IMG/VR virus record: IMGVR_UViG_2563366865_000004
Location: 1 to 38,371 of that record
DNA from: a virus
Lineage: Duplodnaviria; Heunggongvirae; Uroviricota; Caudoviricetes
Direction: 5' to 3' (one strand)
Length of the DNA stretch: 38,371 bases
This document shows, piece by piece, positions 1 to 240 of this stretch. The position numbers and the translations under genes were made by a program. The notes beneath the pieces are model-generated. The model saw only the letters and a list, made by a program, of their open reading frames with translations, was not told where the DNA came from and ran no database searches. How positions within the stretch are numbered: position 1 is the stretch's first letter; every line of letters starts with the position of its first letter.

Positions 1-84
1 GTCTTGAGTCTTGAGTCTTGAGTCTTGAGTCTTGAGTCTTGAGTCTTGAGTCTTGAGTCTTGAGTCTTGAGTCTTGAGTCTTGA
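1..84. repeat. 12 perfect tandem copies of the 7-bp unit GTCTTGA (minus-strand TCAAGAC / AAGACTC register); array runs to the window edge so true copy number is unknown
   Basis: Direct reading of positions 1-84; unit repeats without mismatch. Confidence 0.97.
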
Positions 85-87
85 CAT
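1..87 (-). CDS. neuO: 5' end (partial, continues beyond window) of a phase-variable polysialic acid O-acetyltransferase-like gene whose coding sequence starts with the heptad repeat
   Basis: Minus-strand ATG at 87..85 with AGGA about 9 nt upstream, followed immediately by the heptads (translation MSRLKTQDSRLKTQD...); location downstream of a K1-type tailspike matches the described CUS-3 neuO arrangement. Confidence 0.7.
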   Translation of the reverse strand, partial: MSRLKTQDSRLKTQDSRLKTQDSRLKTQD

Positions 88-240
88 ATTAGTATCCTAC
101 GTTATTTTACCACTAGTTACTTTTCTTGTCATTAAAAAGCATTTAAATTTTTATATTTAATTTCGTTGACGTCAATGTTTTTTGCCAATGTACTTACTTC
201 TTTATGTGAGCAGTTCATATTTTTGACGCCAACGAAACAT

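Follow-up and report, generated by a model that had tools for sequence, protein, structure and literature searches.

The window analyzed here, a stretch of 38,371 nucleotides from a Caudoviricetes virus (IMG/VR record IMGVR_UViG_2563366865_000004), opens in the middle of a tandem array of a 7-nt unit that abuts a minus-strand ATG. The array raises the question of which gene it belongs to, and whether a change in its number of units could switch that gene on and off. We are all but certain of the answer for positions 1–240, which we read as the 5′ end of phase-variable neuO, preceded by a ribosome-binding site, a probable promoter, and the DNA that separates neuO from the endosialidase tailspike gene in a CUS-3-like prophage, the frame of the gene being switched by the number of units modulo 3.

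In the published description of neuO, a tandem repeat of variable copy number (VNTR) with the unit 5′-AAGACTC-3′ begins 2 nt after the start codon and is present in 2–93 copies (Schulz et al. 2011, PMC3046976, which cites Deszo 2005, King 2007, and Bergfeld 2007 for the neuO system). [quoted passage not shown] Switching within a strain and the acetyl-CoA-dependent O-acetylation of α-2,8 polysialic acid are both described in the literature (PMC3046976, PMC9659370, PMC13001214). A 2026 survey in J Bacteriol found that 43.5% of 8,659 K1 genomes carry neuO, the share in ST95 being 88.1%; the array held 3–53 repeats in 64 complete genomes, 20 being the commonest number and 65.6% being OFF, and fragment analysis of one strain gave 93% with 21 repeats next to minor subpopulations with 20 and 22 (PMC13001214). 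The same study reports that O-acetylation protects against K1 phage and neutrophils and raises serum sensitivity. According to the published work, bacteria with an O-acetylated K1 capsule are less sensitive to K1-specific phages and to endosialidase, resist killing by neutrophils, and are recognized differently by the immune system.

The Repeat Tract and the Start Codon of neuO

Twelve perfect head-to-tail GTCTTGA units fill window positions 1–84 (Tandem Repeats Finder: period 7, 12.0 copies, 100% matches, 0 indels, score 168). The 21-nt triple unit occurs 10 times in the whole window, every time inside 1–84, and not once when the window was shuffled 100 times with its dinucleotide composition preserved. 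Directly beyond the tract, CAT at 85–87 is a minus-strand ATG, the start codon of neuO by sequence and translation, and the first TCAAGAC unit opens with the two bases, TC, that follow it. The minus strand reads GGATACTAAT-ATG-TC-(AAGACTC)x11-AAGAC and then meets the window edge; the bases leading up to the ATG also read ...TAGGATACTAAT. Counted in the TCAAGAC register the tract has 12 units, and counted in the published AAGACTC register it has 11 complete units plus 5 bases, the AAGACTC units starting 2 nt past the ATG exactly as defined in PMC3046976.

Translation from the minus-strand ATG yields MSRLKTQDSRLKTQDS..., that is, M-S-(RLKTQDS)n, the heptad of the poly-psi domain. Because 7 and 3 are coprime, the tract is open in each minus-strand frame and encodes the same cyclic heptad in all of them. 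All three plus-strand frames carry a TGA every 21 nt, and coding through the tract on that strand was rejected on these grounds. The second codon in the window is TCA (Ser), giving the allele ATGTC, compared with ATGTT and TTA (Leu) in CUS-3; both alleles are common, ATGTC being found in about half of the related loci.

The first-pass annotation of this DNA had described a minus-strand ATG directly followed by twelve or more perfect GTCTTGA units, which is literally right in the TCAAGAC register, and an in-frame array that encodes a repeating RLKTQDS heptapeptide, which the translation confirms. It had also stated that the array is cut by the window edge and that the ON/OFF state cannot be read here; this too is correct, the tract running to position 1. 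Tandem Repeats Finder, the pattern search with its shuffles, the translation, and the CUS-3 annotation agree in assigning positions 1–84 (minus strand) to the start-proximal part of the neuO poly-psi VNTR. As the tract reaches the window edge, 12 units is a lower bound on its copy number, and the window covers only the 5′ end of neuO, with the catalytic body, the full repeat count, and the ON/OFF state beyond the edge.

The Tract Adjoins the Endosialidase Tailspike Gene of a CUS-3-like Prophage

To identify the surroundings of the tract we compared the window with phage CUS-3 (CP000711.1). Window positions 1–3000 are 99.9% identical to CUS-3 positions 2286–5285, and positions 1–4213 are about 99% identical to the same record. 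The tract is annotated there as [quoted passage not shown] and in the CUS-3 gene order it lies between the integrase gene and siaK1, which encodes the endosialidase tailspike. The corresponding ORF of the window, a siaK1 homologue of 981 amino acids at 241–3186 (minus strand), lies upstream of neuO on the same strand, which puts neuO immediately downstream of the tailspike gene in a P22-like prophage. The tailspike has all four endosialidase domains in addition to the P22 head-binding domain and the Peptidase_S74 chaperone domain; its Pfam matches include End_beta_propel (1.2e-233), End_tail_spike, Head_binding, and Peptidase_S74. Window positions 1–1500 have a match in 194 of 5,426 complete E. 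coli genomes, always on the chromosome and at ≥99% identity in 192 of the 194, and in these matches an "acyltransferase/acetyltransferase" is annotated beside a "phage tailspike protein."

At the other end of the window, positions 38136–38151 (plus strand) are an exact match to the CUS-3 attL/attR core, TTGCAGGTTCGATTCC, which identifies them as the attR core of a CUS-3-like prophage. The window accordingly starts within neuO and stops 220 nt beyond attR; int, attL, argW, and the remainder of neuO are outside it, just past position 1. With its P22-like gene order, its endosialidase tailspike, its attachment core of the argW site, and the P22-type antirepressor domains found in the window, the element belongs with the CUS-3-like prophages. 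An earlier claim that the tract lies beside the tailspike gene of such a prophage is thus upheld by the 99.9% identity, the siaK1 annotation, and the tailspike ORF at 241–3186. We take the source to be an E. coli K1 prophage of the CUS-3-like (P22-like, Lederbergvirus) kind, the endosialidase/neuO module pointing to the K1 host; a K1 ExPEC strain, or a phage of one, is the probable origin.

Up to the attR core the window is collinear with CUS-3 but mosaic, in 18 blocks that are 64–99% identical. By alignment, CUS-3 accounts for about 65% of the window, the other 35% or so having weak or no DNA similarity to it. Among 5,426 complete E. coli genomes, the share of window positions 1–25000 present in one place never exceeds 81%. 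Judged by these alignments, the neuO/endosialidase module sits on a P22-like backbone that is a mosaic of its own, and such mosaics are ordinary among P22-like phages. The stretches dissimilar to CUS-3 include 12273–15631, with a block in the head-gene region.

The Predicted Acetyltransferase Body beyond the Window Edge

Read in related loci, the ORF that leaves the window at position 1 continues into a 215-aa left-handed β-helix acetyltransferase body with a Pfam Hexapep match. NeuO matches PDB 3JQY, "Polysialic acid O-acetyltransferase," with an E value of 1.9e-160 and a single substitution (I versus V) over 242 aligned residues, heptads included; the second-best structure match is OatWY of Neisseria (PDB 2WLC, E 6e-31). 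That the body is in frame with the tract when the number of units, n, is a multiple of 3 was seen in 19 related loci with ≥99% identical flanks. From these relatives we infer that an intact neuO body lies just beyond the window edge in the source genome, where (AAGACTC)n would be followed by GTTTTCCGTTGATGATAATGG... and the 215-aa acetyltransferase body. The proposal that the tract opens a neuO-like O-acetyltransferase gene is accordingly supported by the identity to CUS-3 and by the 3JQY match in relatives, the body itself being outside the window.

Copy Number and Reading Frame in Related Loci

For the comparison of copy numbers we fetched CUS-3, phage phiv205-1, 14 finished E. coli chromosomes, and 6 IMG/VR contigs with the same start-plus-array sequence. 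The array was bounded on both sides in 19 loci (CUS-3, phiv205-1, the 14 complete genomes, and 3 of the IMG/VR contigs), and these complete arrays had 8, 9, 12, 13, 18 (three loci), 19, 20 (four loci), 23, 24, 25, 30 (two loci), 34, and 39 units. A full-length ORF was present if and only if n was divisible by 3, as it was in 9 of the 19 loci, and measured 237–307 aa in these ON alleles (about 216 aa + 7n/3). The other 10 of 19 were OFF, with a stop 4 codons past the tract at n = 3k+1 and 17 codons past it at n = 3k+2. In its own frame the 215-aa body was intact in all 19 loci, including all 10 OFF alleles, with 0–1 substitutions; an intact body in OFF alleles reads as the signature of a reversible switch and not of decay. 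With its mode of 20 units and its 10 of 19 OFF alleles, the sample is consistent with the population figures of PMC13001214.

The rule that the continuity of the ORF follows n modulo 3 was thus exact in 19 of 19 loci, in line with the first-pass view that a 7-nt unit shifts the frame on and off as its copy number changes. That annotation had also named two findings that would speak against it, namely upstream sequence with no acetyltransferase ORF in frame at any repeat number, and a repeat length that does not vary across isolates. The related loci gave the opposite on both counts: the ORF was in frame whenever n was a multiple of 3, and the length ranged from 8 to 39 units among the 19 loci.

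Two isolates from chicken match window positions 1–1500 at 100% identity and carry 24 units (ON) and 23 units (OFF), respectively. Further in, their genomes diverge from the window, one by an IS66 insertion in the tailspike gene and the other by an Arc-family gene in place of ant. Since these two genomes disagree on the repeat count, that of the window is not to be guessed from its relatives. In RefSeq the OFF alleles appear only as a 111-aa internal "acyltransferase" fragment (WP_011478229.1).

The Region Upstream of neuO

Between the start codon and the tailspike gene, the sequence contains several candidate expression signals. AGGA at 95–98 (minus strand), 7 nt upstream of the ATG, resembles a Shine-Dalgarno element and would serve as the ribosome-binding site. 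A consensus scan gave a candidate σ70 promoter of neuO at 104–132 (minus strand; 10/12 matches), made up of ATGACA at 132–127, a 17-nt spacer, and a TG-extended TAAAAT at 109–104.

The boundary of the neuO insertion was read from the Lederbergvirus ON470605.1, which has the same tailspike and no neuO. In this phage the sequence from window position 127 is joined directly, at about position 2500, to DNA that CUS-3 carries just 3′ of the neuO stop codon. Because homology to ON470605.1 starts at 127, neuO seems to be a sharply bounded cassette, with the junction between cassette and backbone at window position 126/127 and the part inside the window at 1–126 (minus strand). The cassette measures 717 + 7n bp, which is 850 bp in CUS-3 (1562–2411). 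The junction separates the candidate −35 box, which lies in the backbone, from the −10 box, the Shine-Dalgarno element, and the gene, which lie in the cassette. In matches from a horse and a dog isolate (H64 and H66), the homology to the window begins at 149, and these matches may represent additional variants that lack neuO.

In the intergenic backbone between tailspike and neuO, immediately 3′ of the stop codon of the tailspike gene, an inverted repeat (161–175 and 223–237, 93% complementary) could form a long hairpin with a stem of 15–16 bp and a 47-nt loop at 161–237 (minus strand). As minus-strand RNA it has a predicted folding energy of −22.6 kcal/mol (z −4.96), and it is also present in the neuO-less ON470605.1. 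As it lacks a U-run after the stem, the hairpin does not qualify as a canonical terminator, and a search for an intrinsic terminator between tailspike and neuO gave nothing. Positions 88–240 are invariant across all neuO-positive loci except for one SNP (position 210), and with so little variation, conservation cannot separate functional from neutral positions in this region. It is possible, if on balance doubtful, that insertion of neuO split the candidate promoter, so that expression of neuO would depend on a hybrid promoter downstream of the conserved hairpin, and that cassette and tailspike were together transferred to a P22-like backbone that none of the 5,426 complete E. coli genomes has as such.

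Alternative Explanations for the Tract

The position of the tract at the very end of the window invites the explanation that the array, or its length here, is an artifact of assembly, such as a contig end that is collapsed or chimeric. The first position of the window already lies within the array, 12 is the minimum count that the assembler left, and 3 of the 6 IMG/VR contigs with the start-plus-array sequence likewise end inside the array, after 9–13 units. Contigs that end in this way indicate that short-read assemblies tend to break in the tract, and the window probably starts there because its own assembly broke in the repeat. The array is, however, flanked by unique sequence in CUS-3, in phiv205-1, and in the 14 finished E. 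coli chromosomes, so that only the count is unreliable, and an artifactual tract is very improbable. Slightly more weight, and still very little, goes to the idea that the tract is the remnant of a decayed neuO whose body is deleted or disrupted outside the window, leaving no working switch. CUS-3-like prophages are prone to decay, a 5′-truncated neuO remnant is known from the argW copy of strain CE10 (PMC9659370), and the body is not visible in the window. IS elements (IS66/ISCro1 and IS3) interrupt the tailspike gene in MS1657, strain O18, and phiv205-1; neuO is intact in these three, even phase-ON, and loss of the tailspike with an intact neuO fits a retention of neuO in decaying prophages. 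Against decay at this locus stand the intact 215-aa body in 19 of 19 loci that share the start codon and the array, the perfect repeat units, and the rest of the window, which has the appearance of an intact prophage and includes a tailspike of the full 981 aa.

The repeat might instead act on transcription, through promoter spacing or the 5′-untranslated region, as some contingency repeats of Haemophilus and Neisseria do. A 2022 study in PNAS described DsdC-dependent transcription of neuO together with phage protection; DsdC binds within the neuO coding region, neuO mRNA is >7-fold lower without DsdC, and the authors speculate on an effect of DsdC on slippage (PMC9659370). By these observations, the frame switch is overlaid by a transcriptional layer. 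The tract itself lies downstream of the ATG, with the AGGA Shine-Dalgarno element 7 nt upstream of that codon, the continuity of the ORF follows n modulo 3 without exception in 19 loci, and the heptads are present in the sequence of the crystallized protein. A promoter-spacing role was rejected on the position of the tract and the exactness of the n modulo 3 rule, and of the three alternatives an action of the repeat on transcription is the one we consider least credible. We therefore retain the translational frame switch at the 5′ end of neuO as the explanation of the tract.

Other Features of the Prophage

Past attR, a small ORF runs from 38156 or 38171 to 38371 (66–71 aa) with a weak HTH_17 match (E 0.008, below cut-off). 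Its resemblance to an AlpA-type island regulator suggests that another integrated element abuts the prophage.

Positions 4768–5618, between the mnt/arc-like region and the DNA-transfer genes, have no DNA homology to CUS-3 and carry two plus-strand ORFs, one at 4776–5090 with a signal-peptide-like N terminus and one at 5116–5601 with a lipoprotein-like LLAGC lipobox. Neither ORF gave a Pfam match; the segment could be a lysogenic-conversion or exclusion moron.

Two further repeat regions lie elsewhere in the window. Inside a homologue of the λ-type replication gene O, positions 27535–27646 contain imperfect tandem repeats of period 12, TGTGCGGCTTCA and CATCATGTGCGG, in 2.7 and 4 copies, which are probably the iterons of an origin. 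A degenerate hexanucleotide array of AGAAGC (14 copies, 63% matches) occupies 31543–31626, in a region homologous to the CUS-3 early-left hypothetical gene ECRS218_0049.

A Model for the Switch and Its Meaning

In the published mechanism, which we adopt for this tract, translation from the minus-strand ATG at 87–85 would enter the AAGACTC tract at once. The tract would be read through in whichever frame, always as RLKTQDS, and the number of units would fix the frame in which the ribosome leaves it. With 3k units, translation would pass into the 215-aa left-handed β-helix acetyltransferase body (ON), and with 3k+1 or 3k+2 units it would run into a stop 4 or 17 codons past the tract (OFF). Slipped-strand mispairing during replication would gain or lose units, mostly singly, and O-acetylation of the capsule would thereby switch stochastically and reversibly, while in ON alleles the number of heptads also scales catalytic efficiency. 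For the kinetics of slippage, the activity of the enzyme, and the phenotypes, this scheme draws on the literature. The present analysis supplies the tract, its ATG and heptad coding, the neighboring tailspike gene, the identity to CUS-3, the copy-number polymorphism, and the n modulo 3 rule.

The mechanism, the tract, and the gene are all published and annotated in GenBank and are therefore already known, and the tract here adds no new biology. [quoted passage not shown] The switch alters sensitivity to K1 phages, killing by neutrophils, serum sensitivity, and immune recognition in E. coli of neonatal meningitis and in uropathogenic ST95 strains. Since assemblies of short reads tend to break in the tract, ON/OFF calls need long reads or fragment analysis; annotation pipelines, for their part, reduce OFF alleles to the 111-aa "acyltransferase" fragment or miss them entirely.

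Comparison with Known Systems

The nearest solved homologue after NeuO itself is OatWY of N. meningitidis W-135/Y (2WLC), which is likewise a left-handed β-helix acetyl-CoA transferase that serves a sialic acid capsule. Unlike neuO, OatWY has neither an N-terminal heptad domain nor a heptanucleotide VNTR, and it is encoded in a chromosomal capsule locus and is not phage-borne (PMC3046976).

The closest system of all is neuO of CUS-3 (CP000711.1, 3JQY). It shares with the window the AAGACTC unit, placed 2 nt past the ATG, the RLKTQDS heptad, the endosialidase neighbor, the upstream region with one SNP in 156 nt, the Lederbergvirus type of prophage, and the att core. It differs in its second codon, TTA (Leu) as opposed to TCA (Ser) in the window, and in its backbone, CUS-3 being alignable to ~65% of the window.

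In Haemophilus influenzae and Neisseria, simple-sequence contingency loci have, for example, tetranucleotide repeats in lic1, lgtC, and mod and homopolymer tracts in siaD and opc. Like neuO, they hold in their 5′ coding region a repeat whose unit length cannot be divided by three, and they use slipped-strand mispairing as a reversible ON/OFF switch of a surface-modifying enzyme. neuO differs from these loci in its 7-nt unit, in a tract that is translated into a peptide domain tuning the activity of the enzyme, and in being carried by a temperate phage.
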